DNA of 64,000 bases from Minisyncoccota bacterium (GTDB taxonomy: Bacteria; Patescibacteriota; Minisyncoccia; Phycocordibacterales; DATDWN01), in assembly GCA_041658985.1 (NCBI GenBank), contig JBAZZC010000004.1, forward strand, positions 20,221 through 84,220, read 5' to 3'. This document shows, piece after piece, positions 7,335 to 61,026 of the stretch; position 1 is the stretch's first letter, and the number at the start of each line of letters is the position of its first letter. Under the pieces are notes generated by a model that saw only the letters and a list, made by a program, of their open reading frames with translations, did not search any database and was not told the DNA's origin. Position numbers and translations under genes: made by a program.

Positions 7335-7823
7335 TTACCTCGAGAAGGTCACGATGACCGGTCTCGATGTTCCAGATTGGATTTCTATCCACGGTTGTTC
7401 GGGGATTTCAACCGTCATTCCTGGGCCGTCAACGTATGGTCGGCCGACTGGGTCCCAGATGAGAATGGGTCCTTGTGGCTTCCCCTTCATTCCGGCCAGG
7501 TAGGGGACTCGGCAACTCCGGCCCACAATGGGGGCTGTGACGACGTAGGTCCCATCTATCTCTGGAGTACAGAGGTTTACGATTGTAGCCGGTCCGGTCG
7601 ACCAGCTCCAGCACCCCCTAACCAGGAACACCGTCGTCAGGATGCCAACGCCGACGAGTACCCAATTGAGCCATCCACTTCTTCTGGTTGTCGTCGTGGC
7701 CGTGGTACTGGGTGGTAGTGGTCCAAACGGCCTTGGGCTATGGTGTTGTCGTGACTTGAAGACCTTGACAACAACCACGAGAACCAGAAGGACCGCCAGA
7801 ATCACAACAAGGGTGATAAGCAC
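7335..7823 (-). CDS. membrane protein downstream of the SPFH gene, NfeD-like partner candidate
   Basis: Two TM helices plus a C-terminal beta-rich domain. The operon position after an SPFH gene suggests NfeD-like (inference). GC-rich. Confidence 0.35.
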   Translation of the reverse strand: MLITLVVILAVLLVLVVVVKVFKSRQHHSPRPFGPLPPSTTATTTTRRSGWLNWVLVGVGILTTVFLVRGCWSWSTGPATIVNLCTPEIDGTYVVTAPIVGRSCRVPYLAGMKGKPQGPILIWDPVGRPYVDGPGMTVEIPEQPWIEIQSGTSRPVIVTFSR

Positions 7824-7825
7824 GT

Positions 7826-8893
7826 TTACCCACCCTTCTTCCCGTCAGTGGGCAGAGGGAGCGTGACTGGCACCTGCCCACCACCCGTGACGTCTACTCG
7901 TGTAGTCAGTCCGGGCTGTGCTCGTGCCGCCAGGATGCGCGAGACTTGCTCTGCGGCGATGTTCGGGTTGACCCCCTGCTGCACCAACTCCGCAACCATT
8001 CGTGAGAACTGGGCGGCGTCTGCTTCCGCAAGTCGTATCCCAGCCTCTTGTCTGGCTGTGCTTGAGATGGTTAGGGCAGTGGCTTCGGCCGTTGCTTGAG
8101 CGATCTGTCCAGCACCCTCTAGCTGAGCCATCTTCTTGGCCTCGATGGCTTGACGGGTCTTCTCGTCAGCCGGGTCCCACCGTGAGATGGAGATTCCAGT
8201 GATTCTGGTTCCGACCTGCCTGACGAGTTCCTTGTTGAGTGGGCTGTCGGGGTCTTTCAACCCGTCCAGAATCCCTTGGACTTCTCCCTTGTCGATGTTG
8301 ATGAAGTCGTCGATGGTCAAGTCGTTAATGATGTCACCAACTGCTCCCTGAACGATTCCTCCTGCGTTTCCAAAGAAGTCTCCCTTCAGGCGAATAATCG
8401 GTGTTCCCGGCGTTACGACCACAGACTTGGTTCTGACTAGGACGTTGACCGACATGCCGTCCTTGAGCTCCACCTTCCACATGAGGTACGAACGGGGGAA
8501 GGTCTTTCGAAGGGTGTCCGTCCACTCCACGCCGAGATCGATGATCCACTTTTCGGCGGGAGCTTGATCATCCGGGTTTTCTTTTTCCCTGTGAATCGGA
8601 AACTTCAAGACAGACGAGATGCCAGGGATTCCTACCCACCACAAGCCGAGATGCTTGTTGAGGAAGGATTTCTCTTGGTTTCCGTCGACGAACAACCCAG
8701 AGTCGGTTTCTCCGTTGTCGTCGAGGTGTTCTCCACGCGCGTCGTGGATGATTTGTGCGAGGGACTCTCCCACCATCCTGAACTTAATGTTGTCCGTCTG
8801 GATACGGGTTAGCATACCCAGTTGGACGAGGAGAATGATCCCGACCACGGCAATTGCTAGGGTCAGGATCACAGACAGCAAAAAAGTAACCAC
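7826..8893 (-). CDS. SPFH/band-7 (stomatin/prohibitin/flotillin-like) domain membrane protein
   Basis: N-terminal TM, then an SPFH-like core (IINDLTIDDFINIDKGEVQG...) and an Ala/Gln-rich coiled-coil tail. Markedly GC-rich relative to its surroundings. Confidence 0.7.
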   Translation of the reverse strand: MVTFLLSVILTLAIAVVGIILLVQLGMLTRIQTDNIKFRMVGESLAQIIHDARGEHLDDNGETDSGLFVDGNQEKSFLNKHLGLWWVGIPGISSVLKFPIHREKENPDDQAPAEKWIIDLGVEWTDTLRKTFPRSYLMWKVELKDGMSVNVLVRTKSVVVTPGTPIIRLKGDFFGNAGGIVQGAVGDIINDLTIDDFINIDKGEVQGILDGLKDPDSPLNKELVRQVGTRITGISISRWDPADEKTRQAIEAKKMAQLEGAGQIAQATAEATALTISSTARQEAGIRLAEADAAQFSRMVAELVQQGVNPNIAAEQVSRILAARAQPGLTTRVDVTGGGQVPVTLPLPTDGKKGG

Positions 8894-9051
8894 TGTTCAC
8901 GCTCCTTATCGTCTTGTCTTCCAATCTAGAATTTCAAAGAACTCCCTCGGAACACCCGAAAGTAGTCCTTTTGGTCCTGAACGGATTTTATCATATAAAT
9001 ATGTAAAAGTCAATATAAAAACGGCCCAGTATGGAGTTGTTTTTGATGTTG

Positions 9052-9133
9052 TGAGTGCGAGAGGATTTGAACCTCCAAGAGTTACCTCATACGCTCCTGA
9101 AGCGTACGCGTATACCAATTCCGCCACGCACTC
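9052..9133 (-). tRNA. tRNA-Leu(CAG), type II with long variable arm
   Basis: Cloverleaf traced by hand. Acceptor GAGTGCG/CGCACTC, anticodon loop TTCAGGA, T-loop GGTTCAAATCC. Confidence 0.8.
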
Positions 9134-9290
9134 GATTTGTTGTTGTGGGTGAGGGGAGACTCGGTCACAACTCTCGTCTTTCATGAACTCAAGACGAGGT
9201 CGCGACCCCGACTCAGCTTCACTTCTGTCTTTCTCGTCTCCTACCAATTATTAATAAATCACCCCAGAAAGAAGTGATTTATTAATAATG

Positions 9291-14734: not shown

Positions 14735-17410
14735 ATGCCACCATTTGGTCATTTTACAACAAAAGCAAAAGAAGCTATCCGAAAAGCCCATGAGCTGGCT
14801 ATTGAACGTGGTCAAAATCACGTTAACTCCCTCCACCTTTTAACTGCTCTTATTTTACAAGAAGAGGGAATTGTCACTTCAATATTAGATAAGTTACAAA
14901 TTGATACAATTCTTTTGACGGACTCTCTTATAGAAGCCATAGAAGGTGCTGATGTCGGACAAACCATTTCTGCTTCATATCAAGTTTATCTTACACCAGA
15001 TTTAGCTTCTGTTATTGAAGCTTCCGTTAAACAAACCCCAGCTCTTCATGATGATTTCGTTTCAACCGAGCATCTTTTTCTAGCCTTAATTGAAGTTCCT
15101 GGTCCTGCCAGGGATTTACTCATAAAATTTAAAATAGAAAAAGATTCAGTTCTTCGTCTTATTGAAGAAATAAGAAATACAAAAACTGCTGATACGGAGA
15201 CACCAAAGAAATTTAAGTCACTTTCAAAATACACAAGAAATCTAACAAAACTTGCTGGGATGAATAAATTAGACCCAGTTATTGGAAGAGAAGATGAAAT
15301 TTCCCGTATCATCCAGATTCTTTCCCGTCGAACAAAAAATAATCCAATCTTAATAGGTGAAGCTGGAGTAGGAAAGACAGCTATAGCTGAAGGTTTGGCC
15401 ATTAGAATATCTATGGGAGAAGTACCGGAGTCTCTCAGAGATAAAGAATTGGTTTCTCTTGATTTAGGTCTTTTAGTGGCAGGAACAAAATATCGTGGGG
15501 AATTTGAAGAAAGGTTAAAAAATATTTTGAAAGAAATAGAAAAATCGGATGGCAAAATCATTTTGTTTGTTGATGAGATACATACAATTGTCGGGGCTGG
15601 TTCGGCCGAGGGGTCATTAGACGCATCAAATATGTTAAAACCAGCTTTAGCACGCGGGGAGTTACGAGCCATTGGAGCAACCACCCTTAAAGAATATCAA
15701 AAACATATTGAAAAAGACCCAGCTCTCTCAAGACGATTTCAACCAGTCTATGTTAATGAACCAGGTATAGAAGATGCTATTACTATTCTTCGAGGATTGA
15801 AGGAAAAATATGAACTTTATCACGGGGTTCGTATAACTGATGAGGCCATAGTCGCTGCTGTTAATCTTTCTAGCAGGTATATTACTGATAGGTTTTTACC
15901 AGATAAGGCTGTTGACCTTATCGATGAATCTGCTTCATATTTAAAAATTGCCTTAGAAAATAAACCAGTAGTGCTTCAGAATGCACATTCGAAAATTATA
16001 AAGCTTCAGATTGAACACGAAGCATTAAAAAAGGAGACAGACATGAAATCAAAGACCCGCTTAAAAGAAATAGAGAAAATTATTGCTGACTTAAAAGAAG
16101 AAACAAGCGAGATTGAATTAAAATGGAACAATGAAAAAGAAACAGTCAATGATATAAAGGCAATCAAAAAACAACTTGAAGAGCTTCGTCGTGAAGCAGA
16201 GATTGCAGAAGCCAAATCTGACCTCTCTTTAGCTGCAGAAATACGGTATGGCAAAATTCCAGCTCTGGAAAAAGATCTAGACAACAAATCAAAGAGATTA
16301 AAAAAACTTCAAAGTTCTCGAAGAATTCTGAAAGAAGAAATTACTGAAAATGATATCGCTACGATTGTGTCAAAGTGGACTGGTATTCCAGTGACAAGAA
16401 TGCTTGAAGAAGAAGCGGATAAATTAAATCGCATGGAAGACGTTTTACAAAAAACAATCGTAGGTCAAAAAGAGGCCGTTCAAAAAATATCCGACACAAT
16501 CAAAAGGAGTCGTGCTGGTATAGCTGACCCTCAGAGACCAATTGGCTCTTTTCTATTCTTGGGTCCAACTGGTGTAGGTAAAACTGAACTGACAAAATCT
16601 TTGGCTCAATTTATGTTTAATGATGAAAAAGCTCTGATTCGTATTGATATGTCTGAGTTTATGGAGAAACACAGTGTCTCAAAAATACTTGGTGCTCCTC
16701 CGGGATATGTTGGACATGAAGAAGGCGGAACAATAACTGAAATGGTACGTCATAGACCATATTCTGTCATATTATTTGATGAAATTGAGAAAGCTCATCC
16801 GGAAGTGTTTAATGTTTTGCTTCAGATTTTAGATAACGGGCGACTGACCGATGCTAAGGGTAGAGTGGTTAATTTTAGAAATACTGTGATTATTCTAACC
16901 TCAAATATTGGTTCGCAGTATATAGATAAAATGGAAAAAATTGGTTTTGCTTTTGAAAAAAGTGAAAAGGCAAGTTACGAGGAAGCTAAATCAAGAGTGA
17001 TGGATGCCTTGAAGGATCATTTTCGACCAGAGTTCCTTAATCGTTTGGATGACGTTATTGTTTTTGATATTTTAAGTCGTGACGCTATCGCTGAAATCGT
17101 AAAAATCCAAGTAGAAATTGTCACAGAAAGATTGGCTCAAAAAGAAATCAGACTAATACTTTCTCCAGCCGTATTGGAACATCTAGCAAAAGAAGGATAC
17201 AGCCCACAATATGGCGCTAGACCATTAAAGCGTCTAATACAGACAAAAATTTTAACACCAATAGCTTCTTTCATGGTTAGTAAAAAAATATCGAAAGGGG
17301 GTTCTATTTCTGTTGATATGAAGGGTACCGAGCTTGTCTTTAGTGTAAAAAAAGGTAAACATGATTCGTTTGTCTCACCGACCTTTGTTAATGATGGTAT
17401 CTTGGCATAG
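14735..17410 (+). CDS. clpB: ATP-dependent chaperone ClpB (two AAA+ modules with long middle coiled-coil)
   Basis: Clp_N repeats. Walker [16 protein letters not shown] and [15 protein letters not shown]. Long M-domain coiled coil around nt 15990-16330. Confidence 0.95.
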
Positions 17411-18991
17411 AATGATTTCTTGTGATAAAGTAATCTGGTTAATAGTATATGCGCCGGTCGGATAGCGGCTATTCCAGGGGACTGTAAATCCCCGGTCCAT
17501 AGGACATCGTTGGTTCGAGTCCAACCCGGCGCACCACGTAGGAAAAGTCAAAGAGTTTTGGTTCGCCTCGCTTCGCTCGGCGACTAATTTGTATTCAATT
17601 TTGGGGGTAAAAACGAATTCCCGATTTCGCAAAATATGGTTCGAGCCGATGTTTTTCAGAAATGTTGGCAATTCGGAAAGATTATTCTCTCCAACCAATT
17701 TCGCGGCTTGATTTAAGGACTTTACGAACTCACGAGCCGGTTCGAGCCAAGACAACCCTTTTTCCTCAAAGTCGGTTATTTTCTCTATTAAAGATATTTT
17801 CTGAGATAACAGACTTTGTTTTTTGGCGGCGTATTCCTCTGTGGATAAGGCGTCCGCTAAATAGATGTCTAACAATTTTTGGAGTTTTGCCTCAACCTGT
17901 GTTACTTGCTCTTTCAAAACGCTGATTTCACTTTGTGCGTCCTCTCTCGCTTTATCCTGTTCGCTATCCAACGCCGCCAAAACTTTCTCGGTGTCTTGGC
18001 TCGACAAAGAAACTTTTTGAAGATAAGAAGTGATTTGTTCGGTTAGTGCTTCTTCTCGGAGATAATGCTTTTCTTGGCAAGGGCCTTTCTTGTGAGTACA
18101 GCGATAATAGTTATGACCCTTTTGTCTTTCGGCAGTGATTGAACAATCGCACGAAGCGCATTTGAGAAGGCCAAGAAAAGCAAAATTATTTTTGTGAGAT
18201 TCCTGTACTTTGCCACGCTTGCTCATCACTTCTTGGCAAGTATCAAAAAGTTTCTTTGAAATTAACGGCTCGTGTTGTCCCTCAAAAATTTCCCCCTTCC
18301 ATTTCATTAGTCCAAGGTAAAAGACGTTTTGTAGATTTTTTTGAATGTTTGCGATAACAAGTGGTTTTCCGAGATTACCACGCAAATCGTGTTCCTTACA
18401 CCAATTTGCGAGAGAGTGAAGCGTAAATGCTCCGGTGGCGTACATTTCAAACAACCTCTTAACTTTCGGCGCTTTCTCGCTATCAATATCAATACCGCGA
18501 GTCTTTGGGTTATTGGTGTAGCCCACCGGAGCCCAGCCGGGCCAAACGCCGTTTCTGATTTTCTGTCGTAGTCCTCGCTTCACATTCTCTCGCAAATTAT
18601 CTACAAAATATTTTGATTGACCAAAAGCAATATTGAGCATGAATAATCCCTGTGGTGTAGGCTCAAACCAGAAGGTGGGAAATTTTAGAGAACGAATCAA
18701 ACCGCGATCTACAAAATGGATAATCTTTCCGCCGTCCACACTATTTCTTGCTAATCTATCGGGGTGCCAAGAAATAATCCCATCTGCTTTTCCTGATTCA
18801 AGAATTGCCAACATTTCTGCGAATTTAATTCGCCCGGGTTCTTTTGCGGTTTTGGCTTCCTGAAAGGAAGCGACAATTTCAAGTTTTTCTTTGGCGGCAT
18901 ACTCTTGCAACTCTACGAGTTGCGCTTCAATACTTAAAACCTGTCGGTCATCTTCTTCAGTAGATTTTCTTGCGTAAAGTATGTATTTCAT
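17375..18991 (-). CDS. large serine recombinase (resolvase/invertase catalytic domain + recombinase domain + zinc ribbon). The C-terminal ~95 codons of the ORF run through IR1 and the tRNA-Tyr antisense and may not be genuine.
   Basis: N-terminal [19 protein letters not shown] (serine recombinase catalytic Ser motif), a ...R...GR... region, and zinc-ribbon CASCDCS...YYRC. Start ATG at 18991. The 3' end of the ORF overlaps IR1-L (17531-17631) and the tRNA. Confidence 0.85.
17451..17536 (+). tRNA. tRNA-Tyr(GTA), type II (copy 1)
   Basis: Acceptor GCGCCGG/CCGGCGC, anticodon stem GGGGA with loop CTGTAAA, long variable arm, T-loop GGTTCGAGTCC, encoded CCA. Its last 6 nt begin IR1. Confidence 0.85.
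17531..17631. repeat. IR1-L: 101-bp perfect inverted repeat (partner 19035-19135), beginning inside the 3' end of tRNA-Tyr
   Basis: Compared base-by-base: 17531-17631 equals the reverse complement of 19035-19135 (101/101). Confidence 0.9.
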
Positions 18992-19007
18992 AAGTTTTAG
19001 AAATTAA

Positions 19008-19035
19008 GGATTAAAAAATTTTCTTCCCCCAAAAT
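19008..19035. repeat. IR3-L: 28-bp perfect inverted repeat (partner 19280-19307), located between the recombinase start codon and IR1-R
   Basis: GGATTAAAAAATTTTCTTCCCCCAAAAT vs reverse complement at 19280-19307. Confidence 0.85.
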
Positions 19036-19135
19036 GCGAAATCGGGAATTCGTTTTTACCCCCAAAATTGAATACAAATTAGTCGCCGAGCGAAGCGAGG
19101 CGAACCAAAACTCTTTGACTTTTCCTACGTGGTGC
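19035..19135. repeat. IR1-R: inverted partner of 17531-17631
   Basis: See IR1-L. Confidence 0.9.
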
Positions 19136-19227
19136 AGTATCCTTGAATTAGTCCGAACGCATTTCGCCGCCTGCGGCGGCGAGGAAGTCCCCCCGCAAAA
19201 ATTCGGAAAGGCGGCGGAGCCGCACCG
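19132..19227. repeat. IR2-L: 96-bp perfect inverted repeat (partner 20132-20227). Overlaps the end of IR1-R by 4 nt.
   Basis: 19132-19227 equals the reverse complement of 20132-20227. Confidence 0.9.
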
Positions 19228-19527
19228 ATCAAAACCGTAAAAGAACCCGGAGAAAAACATCGGCGCGAACCATATTTTAATTTTGGGGGAAGAAAATTTT
19301 TTAATCCATTCAGAACCCTCTAAAATGGCCCCAAATAAGGGCTTTTTTGATTGTTTCGATATGGCTTGACAGAAAGGTTTGGATATGCTATACTTAATGC
19401 AGTAAATTGAAGTAAGTTCTTTATCATTTTTGGTCAGCTTTCTTGCGACACAATAGCTTAGAAACCTTGTTTTTCTTAGTTGCTGTGTCGCAAGAATCCA
19501 ACAACCCACAACCCAAAGGAGACTGAC

Positions 19528-20004
19528 ATGATGACGACGCAACCGCGACTGACCAAGGGGCTGTTCGGGCACGAGTTTCGCTCTGCCAGCACCCTGTTCG
19601 GCATCCGGTGTGGACAGTGTCGCGGTCGCGACTTCGTTCACAACGGCGGCTGGTACAACAGGGACGGCGAGAAACTCGGCTGGGGCGATCTCGCACCGGC
19701 GGACTTCCTGAAGATCTCCAACGAGTTGGAGGATGGTGAGCTCTTCATCATTCTCTACGAGTCGGACTCTTTCTGGAACTTCGTCACCCGCCCGGGCATC
19801 ATCGGCAGCATGGCCGCCGTGAAGCCCGACGTGGAGGCGCCCGGCGTCGACTTCGTAGCGGAGAAATGCTGCTACATCGTCGCCAAGCACCGACTCTACT
19901 ACGTCGACCGGAACGGCTACTCGAAAGAGAAGACGTTCGATCGAGACGGGTTGCAGTTCACGGTGCTGACGCCCGAAGCCGCGAAGCAGCTCATCGCTTC
20001 GTAG
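19528..20004 (+). CDS. hypothetical GC-rich protein carried between the IR2 copies
   Basis: TTGACA-17-TATACT promoter at 19366-19394. 11-bp-stem hairpin in the leader at 19442-19494. SD AAGGAG 8 nt before ATGATG (MMTTQPRL...). No recognisable family. Confidence 0.45.
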   Translation: MMTTQPRLTKGLFGHEFRSASTLFGIRCGQCRGRDFVHNGGWYNRDGEKLGWGDLAPADFLKISNELEDGELFIILYESDSFWNFVTRPGIIGSMAAVKPDVEAPGVDFVAEKCCYIVAKHRLYYVDRNGYSKEKTFDRDGLQFTVLTPEAAKQLIAS

Positions 20005-20131
20005 CTCCGCCCGCCGCCAACCCAAACCAAGTTCGCCACCTCTTGATAAAAGGTGGCTTTCTTTTTGTCTGATTTTTTGATAAAATAAATTCATAATTGA
20101 ATGCCGCCAAAGAAAAACTTGAAATTGTCAG

Positions 20132-20227
20132 CGGTGCGGCTCCGCCGCCTTTCCGAATTTTTGCGGGGGGACTTCCTCGCCGCCGCAGGCGGCGAAATGC
20201 GTTCGGACTAATTCAAGGATACTGCAC
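20132..20227. repeat. IR2-R: inverted partner of 19132-19227. It is immediately preceded (20101-20129) by a 29-bp inverted copy of recombinase-gene codons 31-40 (18872-18900).
   Basis: Direct comparison; see findings. Confidence 0.9.
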
Positions 20228-20348
20228 AAATAACTCCTGCAAGGGAGTTTTTGTATTTTATAAGATTGCACTTGAGTTATATTTATGATATATAAGTAAA
20301 TAGAGTGACGAGTTTAGTAGTAACCAAGTCGTCAAGGGGAAATCACAT

Positions 20349-21620
20349 ATGTCAACAATCCACGAAGAGTTAAAGGCCCGGGGCTTTGTCCAGCAGGAAA
20401 CTGCACCGGTGCAGGTCTTTCATCCAACAACTCACGAGTTGCTGGAGACTTTGTCGCTGAAGAATCTACTCAACAATAGTAGGATTACCTACTATGTCGG
20501 TTTTGACCCGACAGCGGACAGTTTGCACATCGGCCATCTTTTGCCGATCATGGCCATGACTCATCTGCAGAGAGCCGGCCACACGCCGATCGCTATCATT
20601 GGTGGCGGGACCACTATGATTGGTGACCCGAGTGGTAAGACTGAGACAAGGCAAATGCTCTCGAAAGAGGTCATTGCCTCAAACGGACAACGGCTTTTGG
20701 CACAGCTGAAACACTACCTTGACTTCGGTCAGGGCAAGGGATTGTTCGTTAACAATGCTGAGTGGCTTTTGCCACTTAACTACATTGAATTTCTCCGCGA
20801 CATCGGGAAACACTTCCGTGTCAACGAGATGGTTCGTACAACGGCGTACGCAGAACGACTTGCACGTGAGGAAGGATTGTCCTTCATCGAGTTCAACTAC
20901 CAACTGCTTCAAGCGTACGACTTTCTCGTTCTGTACGAAAAGTACGGATGCACGGTGCAGATGGGGGGGGACGACCAGTGGAGTAACATCCTTGCCGGAA
21001 TTGACCTCATCCGGAAGGTCAAACAAGGAAACGCCCACGCCTTGACATTCCCGCTTCTTACCACGGCGAGTGGCAAGAAGATGGGAAAGACCGAATCGGG
21101 GGCCGTTTGGCTTGATTCGGCCAAGACCTCACCCTACGAGTACTACCAGTACTGGATTAACACCGAGGACGGAGATGTTGAAAAGTTCCTGAAACTCTTC
21201 ACCTTTCTGCCCTTGGAGAAAATCACGGAACTGTGTGCTCGTGGAGGTCAACACCTCCGTACCGCCAAAGAAGCCCTTGCCTTTGAGACGACGAAGATCA
21301 CCCATGGCGAGGTAGAGGCAATCAAGGCCCAGAATGTTTCAAGGGAGTTGTTCAGTGGTAAGGGGAGTGAAGCATCTCACCTTCCGAGCACGGCCATCTC
21401 CCAGACCGAAGTGGACAAACTCCGACTCGTTGAAGTTCTTGTTAGGGTGGGCTTAAGCTCTTCAAAGACCGAGGCGGGGAAGCTCATCACTAGTGGTGGG
21501 GTCTATGCCAATGGTGAGAGGGTAATCGACGCCAAAGTCATGCTGTCCGAACTTCTCGTGGACGGCACAGTTCTTTTGCGGAAGGGACAGAAAACCTTTC
21601 ACAAAGTAGTCGTTGGGTAA
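20349..21620 (+). CDS. tyrS: tyrosine--tRNA ligase
   Basis: Class I HIGH motif (DPTADSLHIGHLLPIMAM) and KMSKS-type KMGKT. C-terminal S4-like domain. GC-richer than surrounding AT-rich genes. Confidence 0.95.
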   Translation: MSTIHEELKARGFVQQETAPVQVFHPTTHELLETLSLKNLLNNSRITYYVGFDPTADSLHIGHLLPIMAMTHLQRAGHTPIAIIGGGTTMIGDPSGKTETRQMLSKEVIASNGQRLLAQLKHYLDFGQGKGLFVNNAEWLLPLNYIEFLRDIGKHFRVNEMVRTTAYAERLAREEGLSFIEFNYQLLQAYDFLVLYEKYGCTVQMGGDDQWSNILAGIDLIRKVKQGNAHALTFPLLTTASGKKMGKTESGAVWLDSAKTSPYEYYQYWINTEDGDVEKFLKLFTFLPLEKITELCARGGQHLRTAKEALAFETTKITHGEVEAIKAQNVSRELFSGKGSEASHLPSTAISQTEVDKLRLVEVLVRVGLSSSKTEAGKLITSGGVYANGERVIDAKVMLSELLVDGTVLLRKGQKTFHKVVVG

Positions 21621-21626
21621 CGAAGT

Positions 21627-21712
21627 GGGTAGGTGCCCGAGCGGTCAAAGGGGACTGTCTGTAAAACAGTTGGCCTAGGCCTACAGAGGTTCAAATCCTC
21701 TCCTACCCACCA
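21627..21712 (+). tRNA. tRNA-Tyr(GTA), type II (copy 2), 6 nt after the tyrS stop
   Basis: Acceptor GGGTAGG/CCTACCC, anticodon stem ACTGT with loop CTGTAAA, long variable arm GGCCTAGGCC, T-loop GGTTCAAATCC, encoded CCA. Confidence 0.85.
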
Positions 21713-21750
21713 ACTTCCAAAGACTACTAACGAAGTAAGTCTCGAGGACG

Positions 21751-21795
21751 GGAGGACAGAATCATCGCGCGAGCGATGGGGATGTCCTCCTTTTT
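21751..21795 (+). terminator. rho-independent terminator after tRNA-Tyr copy 2
   Basis: GGAGGACA ... TGTCCTCC stem followed by TTTTT. Confidence 0.6.
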
Positions 21796-21908
21796 AGTAA
21801 AAATATTTAATACACCTTATTTATATATGATTGTTAGATGTTATAATCTTTCTGTATATTAATAGTTCAACAATCTCTTAGATATTATCAAAACAAAAGA
21901 GAATTACT

Positions 21909-22517
21909 ATGAAAAAGAAAATGTTTATTCTTGACATTGCTACCTTTGGACATGAAGCGGCTCTTATGTTTATACAAAGACAAGGATGGTTATTGAAAGA
22001 TGTCGAGATTGTTTTTTGTGGGTCACACGGGAGTCTACTTGAACGTTTTGTCACAGAACCATTCTCCTATGCAACTGTACCACTCCGAAACTCTTCCGCT
22101 GGTGAGTATACGGAGGTAACAATTCCTCTTGCAAAATTTCGAGGGGAGGGACATAAACTACTAGAACGAGATCAATTTGATCTCCCAATCAATCTTTTTC
22201 TTCTAGTTTCTCCTAGTGTTAATCAAGTCGATGAACTTGAATGTGTTATGTCACATGAGAAAGCGCTCAAAGAGTGTGGTCAATATCTTGATTCTATCGG
22301 CATTACACAGGATAAGCGCTCAGAGGTTAAGTCAACCGGCGAGTCTGCAAGACTTGTGTCTGAACTCGGCCTTGGTGCATTAGTGGGGGCTGTTGCACCA
22401 AAGATAGCCACCAAGGTTTATAATCTCAAAGTTTTAGCTGAAAACATTCAAGACGACCCGAACAACAAGACCATATTTGTACTTCTCCAGAACCAATTGA
22501 CTATGAAACTAAAATAG
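21909..22517 (+). CDS. prephenate dehydratase (PDT) domain protein, without ACT domain
   Basis: SHEKALKECGQYL (PDT sHpQAlaQC signature) and GALVGAVAPKIATKVYNLKVLAENIQDDPNNKTIFVLL (AAIas...yGL.iL...IqD..nN.TRF). Confidence 0.65.
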   Translation: MKKKMFILDIATFGHEAALMFIQRQGWLLKDVEIVFCGSHGSLLERFVTEPFSYATVPLRNSSAGEYTEVTIPLAKFRGEGHKLLERDQFDLPINLFLLVSPSVNQVDELECVMSHEKALKECGQYLDSIGITQDKRSEVKSTGESARLVSELGLGALVGAVAPKIATKVYNLKVLAENIQDDPNNKTIFVLLQNQLTMKLK

Positions 22518-22572
22518 AATAAGCTCTAAATAGAGCCGAAACCCTCGGCCAAGAACCAGACAGGAGTGTATT

Positions 22573-23136
22573 ATGAAACTGGCGGTACTGTTAGCTGGTC
22601 TACCTGGGTCGGGTAAGACAACGATCTGTCGGCACATGGCTGAAATGCCCAAGGTGTGTCATGTTGATGTTGACCACTATAAGAGGCACAGAGCTGATCC
22701 AAAGAAAGTGACAAAAGAAGTGGACTCGCCGGAACTCCGACTGCTCTACTGTCGGGATGCTCTGAACGAGGCCTTCTGTCACTTTGATGCTGGGGCATCG
22801 GCTGTTGTGATGGATGAAGTATATCCCTACCACTCAGTTCGTGCTCAATTGGAAGCGCTCTGTGCGGAAAGGCAAGTGCAAGTGTTGTGGGTTGAGGTAC
22901 GGTCCTTGTGTGGTACGGCGGTGAAACGTCTTTCTACACCAAGACCAGGACACCTCCTCACACCAGAGTGTGCCGCGGAGATTCACCGCATGTGTGCGGC
23001 TATCTTCGAGGCGTTTCCTGCCGGTTGTCAGAATCACGTCATTATCAACAACGAAGATGGTGCCGACATCAATCGGTTGGTGACTGGTCTCATGGGGGTT
23101 GTCAACAAAAACCCTCAAGTCATCAGTTGTGGCTAG
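22573..23136 (+). CDS. P-loop NTPase/kinase (AAA_33 / zeta-toxin-like small kinase), GC-rich
   Basis: Walker A GLPGSGKTT near the N-terminus, ~185 aa. SD CAGGAG upstream. Confidence 0.55.
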   Translation: MKLAVLLAGLPGSGKTTICRHMAEMPKVCHVDVDHYKRHRADPKKVTKEVDSPELRLLYCRDALNEAFCHFDAGASAVVMDEVYPYHSVRAQLEALCAERQVQVLWVEVRSLCGTAVKRLSTPRPGHLLTPECAAEIHRMCAAIFEAFPAGCQNHVIINNEDGADINRLVTGLMGVVNKNPQVISCG

Positions 23137-23158
23137 GGAAGAAGTCTTGGGGCACGTT

Positions 23159-23190
23159 GTAACAGACGTGCCCCTCTTTTGTTGTCTGTA
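23159..23190 (+). terminator. rho-independent terminator closing the GC-rich block
   Basis: GGGGCACG ttgtaacaga CGTGCCCC + TCTTTT. Confidence 0.65.
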
Positions 23191-23242
23191 TCTTATGTAG
23201 TATTATACGGTATAATAAATGCTTATTTAATAAACACTACCC

Positions 23243-24025
23243 ATGACTAAAAACAATTTAATAGTTAAAATTATGATTCAGTCTGCACGGAAGGCTGGAA
23301 AAATACTGAAATTAGCGTTTGAAAGTAGCTCTTCAAAAGAAGTAAATAAGGGCAAGGGCAATTACGACGTGTTTTCTAAGGCAGACACCGATTCTGAAAA
23401 TATAATTATTAAAATTTTGACCTCCAAATTACCAAAGATAAGTATTTTAAGTGAGGAAAGGGGGTTTATTGATCGTAAATCGTCCGATACAATTATAATT
23501 GACCCACTTGATGGCAGTAGTAATTTTTTGCTGGGCATACCTCACTTTTCCGTATCATTAGTTTATATTAGTGGTGGCGAAATTGTTTCTTCGGTAGTTT
23601 ATAATCCAATCTTAGACAAAATGTATTTTGCAGAAAAAGAAAATGGGGCTTTTCTTAATAGTAAAAAATTGAAGATACAAACTAAAAGAGATTCGTCATA
23701 TATCACAGTGAATTTTAGCCATAATACCAAATGGAAAGAAAAAAGAAAGTTTTTTGATTGGGCCTATAAATCTGGTTTTAGTCGCGTTATGAACAATTGG
23801 TCACCTAACTTAGATTTTTGTTTACTTGCTGAAAGTAAGGTTGATGCGGTTGTATCGCTTGGTAGTTTAATCTATGATTTTGCCCCAGGTTATTTGATTG
23901 CCAAAGAGAGTGGTTGTATTGAATTTCCATCAATAAAAAAGATTAAAGTAACTGCCGATGGCACCAAACAGTTTGTCATTGCTAATAAGAAATCGCTATT
24001 GGCAAAAATACAGGTTATGGTATAA
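23243..24025 (+). CDS. inositol monophosphatase family protein (SuhB/IMPase-like)
   Basis: IIDPLDGSSNFLLGIPHFSVSLV (DPLDGT.NF..G.P.F.VSIA motif). Confidence 0.8.
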   Translation: MTKNNLIVKIMIQSARKAGKILKLAFESSSSKEVNKGKGNYDVFSKADTDSENIIIKILTSKLPKISILSEERGFIDRKSSDTIIIDPLDGSSNFLLGIPHFSVSLVYISGGEIVSSVVYNPILDKMYFAEKENGAFLNSKKLKIQTKRDSSYITVNFSHNTKWKEKRKFFDWAYKSGFSRVMNNWSPNLDFCLLAESKVDAVVSLGSLIYDFAPGYLIAKESGCIEFPSIKKIKVTADGTKQFVIANKKSLLAKIQVMV

Positions 24026-24055
24026 TATATTTAGTTATAAAATCTAACCACTAAC

Positions 24056-24964
24056 ATGACAAAACAAACTAAAAGTTATTTATCAATAGTTGGTCTTTTG
24101 TATTGTTCAGTTATTCTTGGAACTCACTATATTGTAACCAAACAAATATCCTCATATGTTGATGCTTCAATGCTGACTGCCTATAGATTTTTGATTGCGG
24201 CAATACCTTTGTATATTTATATACTTTATATCAAAAAAAATCCTTTCCAGAACATAAAGCCCGGAGTAATCCTGGGCTTTTTCCTTTGGTTAGTATTTAT
24301 TTTGATAGTAACGGGTTTAAAATATACATCGGCAATTAACACTGGGTTCATCAGTGGGATGTTTTTTGTCTTTGTGCCTCTCGTAAACTATCTGGCATTT
24401 AAAAAGCATCTTAAGTTATTTCTGATGCCGGTGATTATTCTTTCTATTATAGGTTTATATCTTTTGACGGGGGGATTGAGCGCTCTTGGTTTGGGTGACA
24501 TACTAATTCTTTTTTCAGCAGTCTTTACCGCCATTCACTTAGTTCTAGTTGGGCATTATTCAAAGGAAGGTCTTGACCCTGTAGTTGTTTGTTTTCAACA
24601 GTTTGCGGTAGTAGCCTTGCTTAGTGTCGTGTTTGCTTTTTTGACAAATAAATTTGATATCTTTGTTCCGGTTTCCCAAATTGGACCACTGTTATTTTTG
24701 GGGATATTACCTACACTTTCTGTGTTTTTTGTCCAAATGGTTTCTCTAAAATATGCATCTGAAATTACAGGGGCTGTATTATTGTCTCTTCAACCAGGTT
24801 TTGCAGCATTCTTTTCTTATTGGCTGGGAGGAGAGAGATTTACAACGCTTCAATTATTGGGAGGAGTCTTATTGTTTTTTTCTGCGATTATATACTCTTT
24901 TTTGACACAAGGAAAAAAGAACATTGAAAAGTCAGATGGTCAAAAAATAGACAGTATAGATTAA
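24056..24964 (+). CDS. EamA/DMT-family 10-TM transporter
   Basis: Two repeated ~5-TM halves rich in Gly/Leu/Phe. Family assignment by topology only. Confidence 0.55.
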   Translation: MTKQTKSYLSIVGLLYCSVILGTHYIVTKQISSYVDASMLTAYRFLIAAIPLYIYILYIKKNPFQNIKPGVILGFFLWLVFILIVTGLKYTSAINTGFISGMFFVFVPLVNYLAFKKHLKLFLMPVIILSIIGLYLLTGGLSALGLGDILILFSAVFTAIHLVLVGHYSKEGLDPVVVCFQQFAVVALLSVVFAFLTNKFDIFVPVSQIGPLLFLGILPTLSVFFVQMVSLKYASEITGAVLLSLQPGFAAFFSYWLGGERFTTLQLLGGVLLFFSAIIYSFLTQGKKNIEKSDGQKIDSID

Positions 24965-24992
24965 AATATAATTCTGTAACCCACCAAATCCA

Positions 24993-26492
24993 ATGACAAC
25001 AATCACTTTTAAGATTCCAGGGTTATCTAAAAAATTTATTTTTAAATCTCCTAGAGTAACATCTCCCTTTTATAAAAAAAAGTGTCGTTTAGAAATTGCC
25101 AAGCATCTTCCACCTACACATTTAGCCTTACACGCTTGTTTGTTGAGAAAAAATAATAAAGGAACTCTTTTAATTGGTCCTACGCAATCTGGTAAATCTA
25201 CAATGGCAAAGTTATTAGTTGATGTTGGTTATCAAATTATAGCGAATGATTTTGTTGCGGTGACTTATAAAAAAGGTCAATTATGGGCGAGTGATATCAA
25301 TTATGAAATAAATAATAAATTTCTATTACCTATAAGTGTGGATTATATTTTTACTCTTGATCCAAAAAATAAACTGGATATTAGTCGTATGACGAAGTCT
25401 GAGTTTGATAAGTTTTATACTAGGACGTTATCCCCAATACCCGAAAAATTTACAAAGTTGTTAATAGAAAAACCTGTCTATCATCATCTTTTTAGAAGAC
25501 ACGTTTGCTTGGGTAATAGAAAAGATCCAGAAAAATGGATGAGGAGTATTAAATATGTATTGTCTATTCATCTTGGTAATCGTGTGGGAATTTTTGGACT
25601 AGGTGCTATTGGTCAAGGTGTTGCTAATTTATTAATTGACCATCCCGGTTTAACAGAGTTACATTTATACACTCGCGATAAATCTAAACTTTCTTCTTTT
25701 GTTTTAGATCTAAAAAGTGCTAATCCTAAAATGACAGTTGTTGGTCACAACACGACGGAAGAATTTTTTGCTAATTGTGACATTGTCATTCTTTGTTTTA
25801 GAGACAGCGGGTCGTTAACAAGTGTTTCTGGAACCGAGGAACGTGTGGCAAGATTATTTCCACATGCTCGTATTGTTTGGGATATCAGTCGTGTCATTCG
25901 GAAATGTGCTTTTTCTGGAGTATTTTTAATGGTTTCTAATCCTGTAGATATTCTAAGTTCGGCTTTGTATGAATTTTCTTGGCTTGATGACAGTGGAAAG
26001 AAGGATAATAACGGGATATTTTCGAATCAAATATATGGTGTTGGTCTAGGACTTGACTATAATCGTCTTTTAGTTATCAAGACAGGGGTTAAATATGAAG
26101 TAGTTGGACCACATGGTGATAATCTTCAATTGGCTAAAATTAATAATGGTGTTCTTGTTCCTGCAATTGATAAAGAATTGCTTTCTTCTGTTTTGGATTA
26201 TTCAAAAAAGATTCGTGTTGGATGTTCTCGTACAATTGAGGGGCCAACTCATGAAATACAAAAAATTATATCTGTGCTTATATCTGGTAAGGGAATATTA
26301 CGGGCATCAGGATTATATTCATCTGACATGTTTCTTGGTAATATCTGGAATATCAAAAAATTAATTCCTGAAGTTAAATTTTCATTTAATAAAAAATTAA
26401 AAGATACTTTAGATTCAGTATCAATAAAACAAACAGATATATTATATTTAACGGAAAAGGAATTACTCAATGATGTATTTAAACGGAAATAA
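24993..26492 (+). CDS. fusion protein: N-terminal HPr-kinase-like P-loop domain + C-terminal L-lactate/malate dehydrogenase-like domain
   Basis: N-terminus GTLLIGPTQSGKSTMAKLLVDVGYQIIANDFVAV (HprK C-domain pattern G..G.SG.GKS..AL.Li..G..lvADD.V). C-terminus VGIFGLGAIGQGVANLL (Rossmann), NPVDILS, GVGLGLDYNR, VVGPHGDN (LDH/MDH signatures). Confidence 0.6.
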   Translation: MTTITFKIPGLSKKFIFKSPRVTSPFYKKKCRLEIAKHLPPTHLALHACLLRKNNKGTLLIGPTQSGKSTMAKLLVDVGYQIIANDFVAVTYKKGQLWASDINYEINNKFLLPISVDYIFTLDPKNKLDISRMTKSEFDKFYTRTLSPIPEKFTKLLIEKPVYHHLFRRHVCLGNRKDPEKWMRSIKYVLSIHLGNRVGIFGLGAIGQGVANLLIDHPGLTELHLYTRDKSKLSSFVLDLKSANPKMTVVGHNTTEEFFANCDIVILCFRDSGSLTSVSGTEERVARLFPHARIVWDISRVIRKCAFSGVFLMVSNPVDILSSALYEFSWLDDSGKKDNNGIFSNQIYGVGLGLDYNRLLVIKTGVKYEVVGPHGDNLQLAKINNGVLVPAIDKELLSSVLDYSKKIRVGCSRTIEGPTHEIQKIISVLISGKGILRASGLYSSDMFLGNIWNIKKLIPEVKFSFNKKLKDTLDSVSIKQTDILYLTEKELLNDVFKRK

Positions 26493-26506
26493 TAATTTTA
26501 GTTTTT

Positions 26507-27703
26507 GTGTGTTATTATGTTTTTATGCAGAAAGATATAAACAGAAAAGGATTACGAACTTGGATAGAAATAGACAAAAAAGCTTTAAAATATAATTACG
26601 GAGTATTACAGGGTATGTTACCAAAAAATGTAAAGCTCATGTCCGTGGTTAAATCCAATGCTTATGGTCACGGTCTTGTTGATTTTTCTCTTGAAGCTCA
26701 ACAACTTGGTATAGATTGGTTTGGTGTAGACTCAATTGTTGAGGCAATTGCTTTGCGGGAGGCAGGTATTACAAAACCTATACTTGTGTTGGGATATACG
26801 CTTCCGGAGATGCTAATAAGGGCCGTAAAACACAATATTAGTATCACTGTTTCAACATTTGAGTTACTTGAAAATATTTCTAAAATGTCTTTTTCAACTA
26901 AAATTAAAGTTCATATAAAAGTTGATACGGGGATGCACAGACAGGGTTTTCAAGAGGACGAAATTGAGAAGGTGGTTGTGAGACTTAAAGAACTTAAATC
27001 GAAGGTTGAAGTTGAGGGTTTGTTTACACATTTTGCTGGTGTAAAAAACTCTAAATTTTCAGAACTTACAAATAAACAACTCCAATCTTTTAAGCTTTGG
27101 GTAGATAAATTTAAAAAAGAAAAATTTACCCCAATTATTCATGCTGGAGCATCAAGTGTGGTTTTCATATTTCCGGAGGCCTATTTTGATATGGTTAGAG
27201 TTGGGATTGCTCAATATGGATTGTGGCCGTCTAAAGATGTAAAAAGACTCACAAAACAAAAAACGAAGTCCCGTAGTGAGCTTTGCTCTACTACTGGGAT
27301 AAAACTGAAGCCAATATTACAATGGAAAACTCTTGTTGGAGAAATAAAAAAAGTACCAAAGGGTAACCGAGTTGGTTATGACTTTACCGAAGAGTTTAAG
27401 AAAAATTCTACTATCGCTGTTTGTCCTATTGGTTATTGGCATGGATATCCAAGAAGTCTTTCCAGTGTTGGTAATGTGCTTGTGAGAGGTAAACGGGCCA
27501 AGGTGTTGGGTAGGGTTTCAATGGACATGATTGTTGTAGATGTTTCAAATATTTCAAAAGTTAAAGTGAGGGATGAAGTCACCTTGATTGGCTCCGGTGG
27601 TAAGGGGATTGTTTCGGCCGAAGAAGTGGCAGATTTGGCCGGTGCATCTCTCTACGAGATAGTTACACGTATTAACCCCCTCATAAAAAGGGTATACTTT
27701 TAA
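26507..27703 (+). CDS. alr: alanine racemase
   Basis: PLP-lysine motif VVKSNAYGHG and two-domain length. The likely true start is the internal Met at ~26522. Confidence 0.9.
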   Translation: MCYYVFMQKDINRKGLRTWIEIDKKALKYNYGVLQGMLPKNVKLMSVVKSNAYGHGLVDFSLEAQQLGIDWFGVDSIVEAIALREAGITKPILVLGYTLPEMLIRAVKHNISITVSTFELLENISKMSFSTKIKVHIKVDTGMHRQGFQEDEIEKVVVRLKELKSKVEVEGLFTHFAGVKNSKFSELTNKQLQSFKLWVDKFKKEKFTPIIHAGASSVVFIFPEAYFDMVRVGIAQYGLWPSKDVKRLTKQKTKSRSELCSTTGIKLKPILQWKTLVGEIKKVPKGNRVGYDFTEEFKKNSTIAVCPIGYWHGYPRSLSSVGNVLVRGKRAKVLGRVSMDMIVVDVSNISKVKVRDEVTLIGSGGKGIVSAEEVADLAGASLYEIVTRINPLIKRVYF

Positions 27704-28948: not shown

Positions 28949-29035
28949 GCCGAGGTGATGAAATTGGTATACATGCGACACTCAAAATGTCGTGGGCGCA
29001 AGTCCGTGAGGGTTCAAGTCCCTCCCTCGGCACCA
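28949..29035 (+). tRNA. tRNA-Leu(CAA), type II
   Basis: Acceptor GCCGAGG/CCTCGGC, anticodon stem CGACA with loop CTCAAAA, long variable arm, T-loop GGTTCAAGTCC, encoded CCA. Confidence 0.8.
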
Positions 29036-29613
29036 TGCTAAAAAGAGTAAGTAGTGATAAAAAGCTACATGCTTATATTGTTGGTTTGGTTCTCGGTGAC
29101 GGAAATTTGTCTAATCCAAATGGTCGTGCAGTGAGACTTAGAATCACTTGTGACAAAAAGTATCCTGAACTTCACCGATATATTCTTTCTTCTTTGCAAA
29201 AATTTTTGCCAGACAACAAGGTCTTTATATCTTACCGTAAAAATTGTTTAGATGTAACATGCTACTCAAATATGTTAGAAAAATTGCTTGGCTGGAAAGC
29301 AAAAGGTGGTTCAAAGTATGCTCAAATGGTTGAGATTCCAAAATGGATTTTGAGAAATAAAATATATACAAAAGAATGTCTAAGAGGAATTATTCAGACA
29401 GATGGTTCTATTTATAAAGACAGAGGTTATTTAATGGTAAATATCACTAGCAGTATCCCTTCTCTTGCTGAAAGTGTTGTTTTAGGAATAAAAAGTATTG
29501 GTTATAAACCAAATATACAACCCCATCAAGATCCTAGAAAAATTAAATACACAATAAGAATTTCAAAAAACACTCAAAAGTTTATTGATGACATTGGGGT
29601 GTGGAAAAGATAG
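29036..29613 (+). CDS. LAGLIDADG homing endonuclease (two-motif), starting at the first nt after tRNA-Leu(CAA)
   Basis: Motifs YIVGLVLGDGNLS and LRGIIQTDGSIY. ATG at 29036 directly abuts the tRNA CCA end. The ORF-track entry 28987.. is an upstream extension through the tRNA. Confidence 0.7.
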
Positions 29614-39235: not shown

Positions 39236-39354
39236 TATTTTAGTATATCAATATGTATGTAATTTGTAATGGATTGTGATTGACAATTTATGCAACAAGT
39301 ATAATCTAAAAAAAGATTTATGTTTTTTGGCCACCTGTAACTCGGAGGTTTCTA

Positions 39355-43541: not shown

Positions 43542-43580
43542 GGATATTTTCATATTAAAAAATAAGGCATATTTTATTGC

Positions 43581-43972: not shown

Positions 43973-44010
43973 CATATCTAAAAAGAAAAAGTGAAAACTT
44001 TTTAAAATGC

Positions 44011-60964: not shown

Positions 60965-61026
60965 TTTATATTGTTGACAAAAAGGCTGTAGCTGATAATC
61001 TAATTTTGGAGCGGGAAGGAGTTTAC

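Follow-up and report, generated by a model that had tools for sequence, protein, structure and literature searches.

We analyzed a stretch of 64,000 nucleotides from a Minisyncoccota bacterium (contig JBAZZC010000004.1, positions 20,221 to 84,220 of the forward strand), referred to below as the window. The region of interest lies downstream of clpB (14735–17410, plus strand), which encodes an 891-aa ClpB and was used as backbone anchor gene. It begins with a tRNA-Tyr(GTA) gene (17451–17536, plus strand; tRNA-Tyr-1), continues with the gene of a large serine recombinase (LSR; 17525–18991, minus strand) and a small gene for a 158-aa protein (19528–20004, plus strand), and leads on to tyrS (20349–21620, plus strand), a second tRNA-Tyr(GTA) gene 6 nt after the tyrS stop codon (21627–21712, plus strand; tRNA-Tyr-2), a gene for a stand-alone prephenate dehydratase (PDT)-domain protein (21909–22517, plus strand) and a gene for an AAA_33 P-loop kinase-like protein (22573–23136, plus strand). 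An initial annotation had read the whole interval from 17451 to 23190 as one GC-rich island that integrated at tRNA-Tyr and brought with it a tyrosyl-tRNA synthetase (TyrRS)/tRNA-Tyr pair, the PDT and the kinase as an auxiliary aminoacylation module. Several of its gene calls were recovered: both tRNA-Tyr genes by ARAGORN and Rfam, the serine recombinase by its Resolvase, Recombinase and Zn_ribbon_recom domains, the sole tyrS of the window by its tRNA-synt_1b and S4-like C-terminal domains, the kinase by its Pfam match to AAA_33, and the terminator it had placed near 23159–23190 as a hairpin at 23149–23174 followed by a T run (23149–23184, plus strand), which closes the kinase gene. The extent of the element had to be redrawn. 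Inverted repeats around the recombinase, absent from that annotation, define the true element, which spans 17533–20227 (about 2.7 kb) and ends 121 nt before the tyrS start. The region is very probably a composite of this mobile element and an unrelated chromosomal tyrS block.

The element is built around two repeat arms of about 100 nt, besides which the repeat analysis found several shorter inverted pairs. Arm a (P' arm; 17531–17631, 101 nt) encodes recombinase residues ~454–487 on the minus strand and is the 100% reverse complement of a' at 19035–19135. Arm f' (P arm; 20125–20227) forms the distal element end and is a 97–100% reverse complement of f at 19132–19234 (96–103 nt). The arms join on 4-nt overlaps, GCAC at 17531–17534, GTGC at 19132–19135 and GCAC at 20224–20227, and within these lie the only bases common to all three attachment (att) sites: 'AC' at 17533–17534 (plus strand), which is the attL core and at the same time discriminator A73 and C74 of the tRNA, GT at 19132–19133 in the internal site, and AC at 20226–20227 in attR. 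The internal inverted segment a'.f (19035–19234, minus strand) is the exact reverse complement of the two element ends joined and resembles an attP, the att site of a free element. It is contained in a conserved non-coding module (19008–19307) bounded by a 28-nt perfect inverted repeat (19008–19035/19280–19307). The module is 91–95% identical in seven further loci (L016, L021, L063, L019, L034, L012 and L013), where it lies directly upstream of the recombinase genes.

Adjoining the distal arm, a 29-nt copy of recombinase codons 31–40 (18872–18900) is located at 20101–20129 (plus strand), and most family loci have such a copy at the same place. In all, three stretches from the 5' coding region of the recombinase (18802–18900; codons 31–40, 46–53 and 58–63) have inverted copies of 18–29 nt elsewhere in the element, and the sites 17657–17674, 19230–19250 and 20101–20129 hold these copies. 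They lie in non-coding parts, except for one inside the 3' coding region of the recombinase, and might serve antisense pairing or as accessory binding sites. A smaller, insertion sequence-like unit bounded by the 101-nt repeats a and a' alone (17531–19135) was also considered and rejected, since f...f' together with the cargo segment is present in every complete locus.

The recombinase has the domain set of an LSR. Pfam matches comprise PF00239 Resolvase (E = 5.1e-22, residues 4–150), PF07508 Recombinase (4.9e-13) and PF13408 Zn_ribbon_recom (3e-07); the protein also matches the PHROG 95 integrase family (E = 6.7e-75) and shows weak similarity to CcrB and XisF in NCBIfam. The translation contains the motif Y-A-R-K-S10-T with the nucleophile Ser10, and residues ~330–420 appear heptad-rich by eye, a candidate coiled-coil stretch in the zinc-ribbon domain. 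Database homologues number more than 7,500 proteins with 64–92% identity, whose names are spread across many Patescibacteria lineages; one of them (P0121) matches 91% of the query with 92% identity. Proteins of the family stop at about residue 487–489, and the native length of the window protein is about 489 aa. Its open frame runs on to 17375, and the resulting 538-aa open reading frame (ORF) is a read-through via antisense tRNA-Tyr-1 into the 3' end of clpB. A scan of viral contigs with the recombinase returned two partial matches only and gave no sign of a phage vehicle.

We then compared the element with related loci. The family comprises at least 539 loci in GTDB species genomes, of which 70 were used for tRNA context, and 31 with enough flanking sequence were fully analyzed. 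All 31 have the same layout: tRNA|a-recombinase-a'.f-one variable segment-f'|flank. The arms are about 100 nt long, mostly 98–100% identical within a locus and 82–97% identical between loci. Element length ranges from 2.3 to 3.1 kb with a variable segment of 0.6–1.3 kb, which as a rule holds a single ORF; in about 30 of 34 cases this ORF and the recombinase gene are divergent. In 32 of 35 elements the cargo ORF is unrelated to the rest; by eye, the translations resemble an HD-domain protein, methyltransferases, a radical-SAM protein, an oxidoreductase and membrane or secreted proteins. Recombinase GC content is mostly 0.38–0.45 (range 0.35–0.52) against host flanks of 0.34–0.64. Genomes carry several copies, and these occupy different tRNA genes in different genomes.

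A convergent tRNA gene overlaps the last recombinase codons in 60 of 70 loci. The target tRNAs represent 15 amino-acid identities, with Leu (23), Arg (11) and Ala (6) leading and Gly, Lys, Tyr, Ile, Asn, Val, Thr, Cys, Phe, Glu, Gln and Met also represented. Because the family uses tRNAs of so many identities, the tRNA-Tyr target in the window is a coincidence. The initial annotation was therefore right that an integrative element sits at the 3' end of tRNA-Tyr-1, but not in the tyrosine theme it had drawn from this. In one family locus (L021, JASEHZ010000030.1, ~5690–5730) the element adjoins a P-arm-like sequence of another sub-family (TTCGAGC...AC) and no tRNA, which suggests insertion into the att-like site of another element. 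We found no description of this element in the literature, although the searchable library was incomplete and its absence there is weak evidence.

Independent evidence for the element boundaries came from the empty site. In relatives selected by ClpB identity (83% in L091, 80% in L092, 65–72% in the others) the gene order IF2-DUF4446-CysDes-trypsin-ClpB is kept, and a tRNA-Tyr gene lies on the downstream side of clpB. This gene has the same orientation as clpB in L091–L093, L098 and L103 and the reverse orientation in L095, L099 and L100. tRNA-Tyr-1 has its acceptor stem (GCGCCGG/CCGGCGC) and its 3' end ...CCGGCGCAC in common with the tRNA-Tyr genes linked to clpB in L091, L092 and others; on these sequence features tRNA-Tyr-1 is the native, clpB-linked gene, orthologous to the tRNA-Tyr of the relatives. 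Although it was missed by the whole-window Rfam run at gathering threshold, a local scan scored it at 51.7 bits against a threshold of 29; Rfam speed filters can drop a genuine tRNA. L092 has a terminator hairpin directly after its tRNA-Tyr. The terminator scan placed a corresponding hairpin in the window at 20232–20255 (plus strand), a terminator native to tRNA-Tyr-1 that the insertion displaced by 2.7 kb. When position 17534 was joined to 20228, the reconstructed empty site gave a single 51-nt alignment across the junction with L092 at 80% identity. The reconstructed site, with the flank 20228–20253, is collinear with L092 and supports the element end at 20227 that the layout of the 31 loci defines.

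In L092, too, insertions seem to favor the 3' end of tRNA-Tyr. Upstream of its intact tRNA-Tyr, a partial 5' copy of tRNA-Tyr is followed by an ORF that by eye looks like a GIY-YIG type (L092 10730–11300), and 15 nt of the tRNA 3' end (TCCTTCCCGGCGCAC) are repeated in direct orientation 170 nt downstream.

The window belongs to an 86-kb MEGAHIT contig (ENA ERZ27249449), and we also asked whether the mosaic of repeats and GC patches could be an artefact of a chimeric assembly. Perfect (100%) inverted repeats, an exact 538-aa recombinase product recorded from a single contig, and several assemblies that break just upstream of tyrS would fit such an origin. However, more than 30 genomes, obtained in different studies and with different assemblers, have the same repeat architecture, and an independent Logan contig (L002) reproduces 20198–27297 at 100% identity and breaks inside f'. 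A true repeat would be expected to break contigs in this way, and L002 independently confirms the junction between element and tyrS. A chimera arising from assembly or from multiple displacement amplification was rejected, as the independent contig is identical and the mosaic recurs in over 30 unrelated assemblies, and we regard an artefact as extremely improbable.

How the element would move can be proposed from the alignment of the three sites in each locus. The common core consists of the discriminator and C74 and reads 'AC' in most loci; in loci within tRNAs with G73 the core is 'GC', and the internal site likewise carries G there. It follows from this core position that the element supplies the last two bases of the CCA end (CA) and that the tRNA stays intact. 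The P arm ends in ...GTTCGGACTAATTCAAGAATACTGC|AC and contains a T(T/C)CG(A/G/C)AC motif at a distance of 24 nt from the core. For the TTCGA of the tRNA T-loop this distance is 19 nt, an offset of 5 nt relative to the P arm that was found in 31 loci. A zinc-ribbon-domain motif that is shifted 5 bp inward in attB as compared to attP has been described as the distinguishing feature of serine-integrase sites (Rutherford et al., PMC3783163). The 5-nt offset matches this rule, which we take as support for ordinary attP x attB integration.

The element would accordingly use the usual LSR mechanism, with exchange between attP and attB at a 2-nt core. In the window, insertion would have taken place at A73/C74 of tRNA-Tyr-1 with regeneration of its CCA end. 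The B arm would consist of the tRNA T-arm and the 3' strand of the acceptor, a sequence found in every tRNA, and a full inverted copy of attP would be retained just upstream of the recombinase gene. Integration at tRNA 3' ends by attP x attB exchange is, in our judgement, probable. Several points weigh against the reading as a whole. The P' and B' arms have no matching motif, so the 5-nt offset holds on one half-site only. In attB, conservation is confined to the half-site on the tRNA side; the opposite half-site is flanking sequence of any kind, an unusual state for an LSR. The elements hold only the recombinase and one variable cargo ORF, with no visible recombination directionality factor. 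The mobility of the element itself is suggested by comparative evidence.

The position of attP within the recombinase ORF may have a further consequence. In about 100 of 109 database homologues the protein ends with W-C-x-G-x-(D/E)-S-N-(P/L), which corresponds to the translated antisense strand of the tRNA T-arm. The recombinase frame also continues across the core into f, where it reads C-S-I-L-E-L-V-R-T-H-F..., and in diverged members the second codon positions of this f frame are nearly invariant while third positions vary (ATC/ATT/ATA, GTC/GTT/GTG, CGA/CGG, ACG/ACC/ACA). The P0149 cluster (525 aa, 11 members, 2567-nt contig) ends exactly in this f extension. In the excised circle, with f' joined to a, the gene would thus yield a longer protein (...W-C-S-I-L-E-L-V-R-T-H-F...), and in the integrated form this tail would be replaced by tRNA-antisense codons. 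Such a difference of the C-terminus between the free and the integrated state might act as an integration-state sensor or bias the direction of recombination, an idea we offer tentatively and hold for somewhat doubtful. The coding signal in f overlaps the predicted binding site of the P arm and a GCCGCC-NNN-GGCGGC hairpin, and constraint at the DNA level may contribute to it. Many members have an ATG exactly at the a' boundary that opens a 68-aa ORF composed of the recombinase tail and the f peptide, although this is not universal. P0149 and P0130 end in ...WCSILELV(RTHF...), the frame across the f'|a junction, and their contigs of 2.6 and 4.4 kb are candidates for a free circular form.

The arrangement of the repeats also allows the recombinase and its inverted repeats to be read as a resident DNA-inversion switch, similar to Hin/Gin or to the 2-micron plasmid, instead of a mobile element: two long inverted-repeat pairs, each ending in a core, flank a recombinase segment and a cargo segment. 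Inversion should produce both orientations, yet only one was seen across the family, with the recombinase 3' end facing the tRNA in 60 of 70 loci and the cargo divergent in about 30 of 34. This single orientation of both segments leaves inversion unsupported, and flipping of the 2-micron type was dropped since a single isomer was seen. Copies at different tRNAs in different genomes, several per genome, and a recombinase GC content independent of the host likewise speak against a resident switch, which we consider very unlikely.

In the window, the cargo is the 158-aa gene at 19528–20004. It has an AAAGGAG ribosome-binding site, a promoter TTGACA-17-TATACT with TG extension (19366–19394, plus strand) that agrees with the consensus at 11 of 12 positions, and a terminator CCACCT...AGGTGG with a T run (20036–20066, plus strand). 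The latter was read from the sequence, as the terminator scan allows loops of up to 8 nt and did not list this longer one. The GC-rich ORF of unknown function listed by the initial annotation, a 365-aa minus-strand frame at 18997–20094, was rejected as an antisense artefact running over the repeats; the plus-strand ORF is the real gene. The family of the cargo protein comprises 630 cluster representatives at E ≤ 1e-3, with lengths of about 155–165 aa and invariant residues N39, W42, G53 and D54. Its AlphaFold2 model reached a pLDDT (predicted local distance difference test) of 96; no match was found in Pfam, NCBIfam or PHROG, nor by Foldseek in the PDB. This cargo gene is absent from all other family elements examined.

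Beyond the element end, tyrS encodes a bacterial-type TyrRS (PF00579, 1.5e-85; PF22421; PF01479, an S4-like C-terminal domain) with the motifs 'LHIGH' and 'KMGKT' in its translation. Its nearest homologues are 69–73% identical and all of Patescibacteria type (nearest ~50), and in a neighbour-joining tree the window TyrRS is placed inside the Patescibacteria clade beside P0002 and P0006. The initial annotation had presumed a foreign TyrRS, and this grouping with homologues of the Candidate Phyla Radiation (CPR) tells against it. Around P0004, P0008 and P0012 the genes for tyrS, the AAA_33 kinase, Inositol_P and EamA follow in the same order as in the window, where Inositol_P and EamA (23243–24964, plus strand) are AT-rich members of the same conserved block. 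A tRNA-Tyr gene lies 6 nt downstream of tyrS in L005, L006, L008 and L009 but not in L010, and the four share the acceptor stem GGGTAGG/CCTACCC with tRNA-Tyr-2. Kinase orthologues with 47–65% identity directly follow tyrS/tRNA-Tyr in L006, L008 and L010. Pairwise identities of the four block proteins are concordant, with the window, L006 and L008 together and L010 outside. None of the related genomes compared (L005–L010) has a recombinase beside the tyrS block. No T-box or other leader was found upstream of tyrS, and tRNA-Tyr-2 is followed by a terminator GGAGGACA...TGTCCTCC TTTTT (21751–21795, plus strand), read from the sequence.

These results bear directly on the single-island reading, in which one island spanning 17451–23190 integrated at tRNA-Tyr and brought the TyrRS/tRNA-Tyr pair, the PDT and the kinase. 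In its favor, the recombinase adjoins tRNA-Tyr, two tRNA-Tyr genes are present, the whole stretch averages 0.47 GC against 0.35 in the backbone, and the block is missing at this position in relatives chosen by ClpB. Yet the element end at 20227, which excludes tyrS, tRNA-Tyr-2, the PDT gene and the kinase from the element, is conserved across 31 loci; cargo does not exceed about 1.3 kb in any of 35 elements, the identity of the target tRNA is arbitrary, and tyrS, its tRNA and the kinase are syntenic with the AT-rich Inositol_P/EamA genes in genomes without the recombinase. No repeat of the tRNA-Tyr-1 3' end was found elsewhere in the window, and the composition of the supposed island is segmented. 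The two tRNA-Tyr genes had also been considered as attL and attR of one island; they share generic tRNA positions only and belong to different orthologous lineages. That the two genes differ, as the initial annotation had noted, reflects this different ancestry (acceptor stems GCGCCGG/CCGGCGC versus GGGTAGG/CCTACCC). A single island is highly improbable, and an element-borne aminoacyl-tRNA synthetase (aaRS)/tRNA pair is refuted by the synteny of the block in relatives that lack an adjoining recombinase. The window pair does resemble mobile auxiliary aaRS/tRNA pairs in that a compositionally atypical tyrS is accompanied by a tRNA-Tyr 6 nt downstream and lies near a recombinase; it differs in lying outside the element, in that its tyrS corresponds by orthology and synteny to the chromosomal tyrS of related genomes, and in that no second tyrS is found within the 64-kb window.

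According to the composite reading, the block would consist of tyrS, tRNA-Tyr-2, the inserted PDT gene, the AAA_33 kinase, Inositol_P and EamA, covering 20349–24964 and extending on to alr. It would have been inherited as a unit in this Patescibacteria clade, and tyrS with tRNA-Tyr-2 would represent the working TyrRS/tRNA-Tyr set of the cell rather than element cargo.

The PDT gene is a special case within the block. It encodes 202 aa, has its own promoter (21820–21847) and matches PF00800 with E = 1.7e-27 over 172 of 181 profile positions, so that the domain assignment of the initial annotation stood. Features of a PheA-type prephenate dehydratase are nevertheless missing: the protein has no ACT domain, and its NCBIfam PRK11898 score of 83.6 bits compares with an equivalog cut-off of 219. 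In L006, L008 and L010 the kinase gene follows without an intervening PDT gene, and the intergenic DNA flanking it shows no informative homology to the tRNA-to-kinase spacers of L006 and L008. Four homologues were found by a word-indexed search that sees only fairly close relatives; one with 56% identity, in L171, adjoins a prephenate dehydrogenase gene. The window itself contains no chorismate mutase, aminotransferase or prephenate dehydrogenase. Prephenate dehydratase feeds the Phe branch and not the Tyr branch of the pathway. The PDT gene is a lineage-specific single-gene insertion, and nothing ties its function to TyrRS.

We next determined composition gene by gene, with z-scores computed against the GC and GC3 (GC at third codon positions) of 39 backbone genes of the window, which have a GC of 0.360 ± 0.028 and a GC3 of 0.280 ± 0.032. 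The recombinase has a GC of 0.42 and a GC3 of 0.41, and the cargo ORF 0.61 and 0.85. tyrS (0.52 and 0.62; z = 10.7) and the kinase gene (0.52 and 0.53; z = 7.8) are clear outliers; the PDT gene (0.41 and 0.33; z = 1.6) barely is one. AT-rich spacers between the segments have a GC of 0.31–0.33. The compositional shift reported for 17451–23190 thus survives calculation as an overall rise, but it is patchy, with at least five segments of differing GC instead of a single island. The other housekeeping genes of the window, encoding ClpB, IF-2, SerRS and TopA, have backbone-like GC3, and Inositol_P and EamA are backbone-like as well, unlike the adjoining tyrS and kinase genes.

The origin of the GC-rich tyrS and kinase genes is less clear. 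As the most likely explanation, all or part of the block would have reached this AT-rich genome from a GC-richer relative, or would have changed its position, through a process in which the recombinase had no part. In the closest backbone relatives the composition is AT-rich throughout, and the sister TyrRS P0002 has a host-like GC of 0.41. Four relatives (L092, L093, L098 and L099) have just 0.4–2.5 kb between tRNA-Tyr and tRNA-Trp and none of the block genes. The genome moreover holds two tRNA-Tyr genes of different lineages. We rate the chance that the tyrS block was transferred or translocated as about even. Against it, the same GC step at the boundary between kinase and Inositol_P is present in L006 and L008, whose proteins are about 62–85% identical, and a shared step in genomes so diverged is hard to reconcile with one recent transfer. 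No TyrRS donor closer than 73% identity was found in the databases, and no donor can be named.

In a more specific version, the segment from tyrS to alr (~20.3–27.7 kb) would be an island of greater age that came to lie between tRNA-Tyr-1 and tRNA-Trp, by acquisition or translocation, without involvement of the present recombinase element. It would account for the four backbone relatives without the block genes, for the redundant tRNA-Tyr of another lineage that accompanies tyrS, for tyrS and the kinase as GC3 outliers and for an internal block order that is conserved elsewhere with different neighbours. Such an island would, however, have no att-like repeats or recombinase of its own; it would include presumably essential single-copy genes (tyrS, alr), its part from Inositol_P to alr is backbone-like in composition, and rearrangement alone could give the same picture. 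We see in this a possibility of some weight, although unlikely on balance.

At the other extreme, tyrS, tRNA-Tyr-2 and the kinase could be purely vertical, with their high GC kept by a local force such as selection or biased gene conversion. This would explain why GC changes at an identical gene boundary in L006 and L008 even though the proteins have diverged by 27–38%, and it agrees with the concordance of the four genes and the position of TyrRS within the Patescibacteria clade. It does not sit well with the backbone GC3 of ClpB, IF-2, SerRS and TopA, with the host-like GC of the sister TyrRS, or with the many other GC-rich orphan islets in the window, which suggest frequent import. We judge a purely vertical history rather unlikely. 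Whichever history applies, the persistent GC heterogeneity of the tyrS-kinase block poses an unexplained problem in genome evolution.

GC-rich islets (0.50–0.60) are dotted through the 0.35-GC backbone of the window, mostly with one orphan ORF apiece (7335–8893, 35176–35442, 38043–38324, 39276–39698, 56057–56509, 61006–61275 and 62664–64000). They gave no Pfam match except for a weak Band_7 in 7826–8893, and the repeat analysis of the window revealed no relics of the element arms in any of them. A tRNA-Leu(CAG) gene (9051–9133) and a GC-rich island 3' of the tRNA (7335–9250) are missing from the otherwise syntenic tRNA cluster of L092 (L092 2016–3486), which consists of Leu-TAG, Lys, Leu-TAA and Cys only; they may represent another tRNA-associated insertion. 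A stretch directly upstream of dnaX (43577–44239, GC 0.48–0.57) has only implausible ORFs, and the GC-rich non-coding DNA at 43.4–44.3 kb gave no Rfam match to known RNAs even at relaxed threshold; it may be an undescribed structured RNA or a further islet. A LAGLIDADG_3-like ORF (28987–29613) starts within the 3' part of tRNA-Leu(CAA) (28949–29035). The 499-aa protein encoded at 24993–26492 is an unusual fusion: residues 45–97 weakly resemble the P-loop region of an HPr-kinase C-terminal domain, and an Ldh_1_N NAD-binding domain is also present.

The element shares features with several known systems. With LSR elements such as the phage A118/LI, Bxb1 and phiC31 integrases, SCCmec CcrAB and XisF, it has in common the domain set of the recombinase, a 2-nt core without a long target duplication, and, on the P and B arms, a distal motif that lies 5 bp further out in attP than in attB. 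It differs in targeting generic tRNA 3' ends of many isoacceptors, with a second attB half-site that is not conserved; tRNA targets are typical of tyrosine integrases, not of LSRs. Further differences are its length of just 2.3–3.1 kb with a single cargo gene, the attP inside the integrase ORF, an inverted second attP with arms of ~100 nt inside the element, and the lack of a visible directionality factor. In temperate mycobacteriophages, attP reportedly lies inside the repressor gene, which is said (by Broussard et al. in 2013) to be truncated in dependence on integration. The two systems are alike in having attP within an ORF and different C-termini in the integrated and excised forms; in our case the split gene is the recombinase itself, which is of the serine type, and the consequence is a prediction.

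Like the yeast 2-micron plasmid (FLP/FRT), the predicted circle would contain two inverted repeats of ~200 nt, with a core in each, that separate a recombinase segment from a cargo segment. FLP, however, is a tyrosine recombinase, and the present element has no second isomer and was found integrated. Integron cassettes and tycheposon-like shuttles resemble it in that a promoter-plus-ORF unit, different in nearly every copy, is located between conserved recombination sequences and beside tRNAs; here each cassette has its own serine recombinase, there is no array, and the hosts are Patescibacteria.

Taken at its widest, the family may represent minimal single-gene shuttles that are distributed across the radiation, with an attB at the tRNA 3' end, an attP that crosses the recombinase ORF and reports the integration state, a spare inverted attP next to the recombinase promoter, and almost any gene as cargo. 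We hold this for plausible, though at slightly less than even chance. The GC-rich orphan islets of this genome might then be debris of such element traffic.

For the window, the analysis removes an attractive but wrong account of a mobile TyrRS/tRNA-Tyr resistance module and shows that a tRNA-adjacent recombinase can mislead the annotation of neighbouring genes. The element also explains the frequent contig breaks beside tRNA genes in Patescibacteria assemblies. An LSR with a generic tRNA 3' end as attB, one conserved half-site and an attP in its own ORF would offer a natural test of how serine integrases read their sites and control directionality, and its target sequence is present in every organism. 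If the shuttle reading is true, one promoter-equipped gene of almost any kind would be ferried between hosts of 34–64% GC; the cargo in the window has a GC3 of 0.85. A tiny, highly conserved element in hundreds of species-level genomes would be a concrete candidate vehicle for gene flow in the CPR, a group with few known plasmids and phages.

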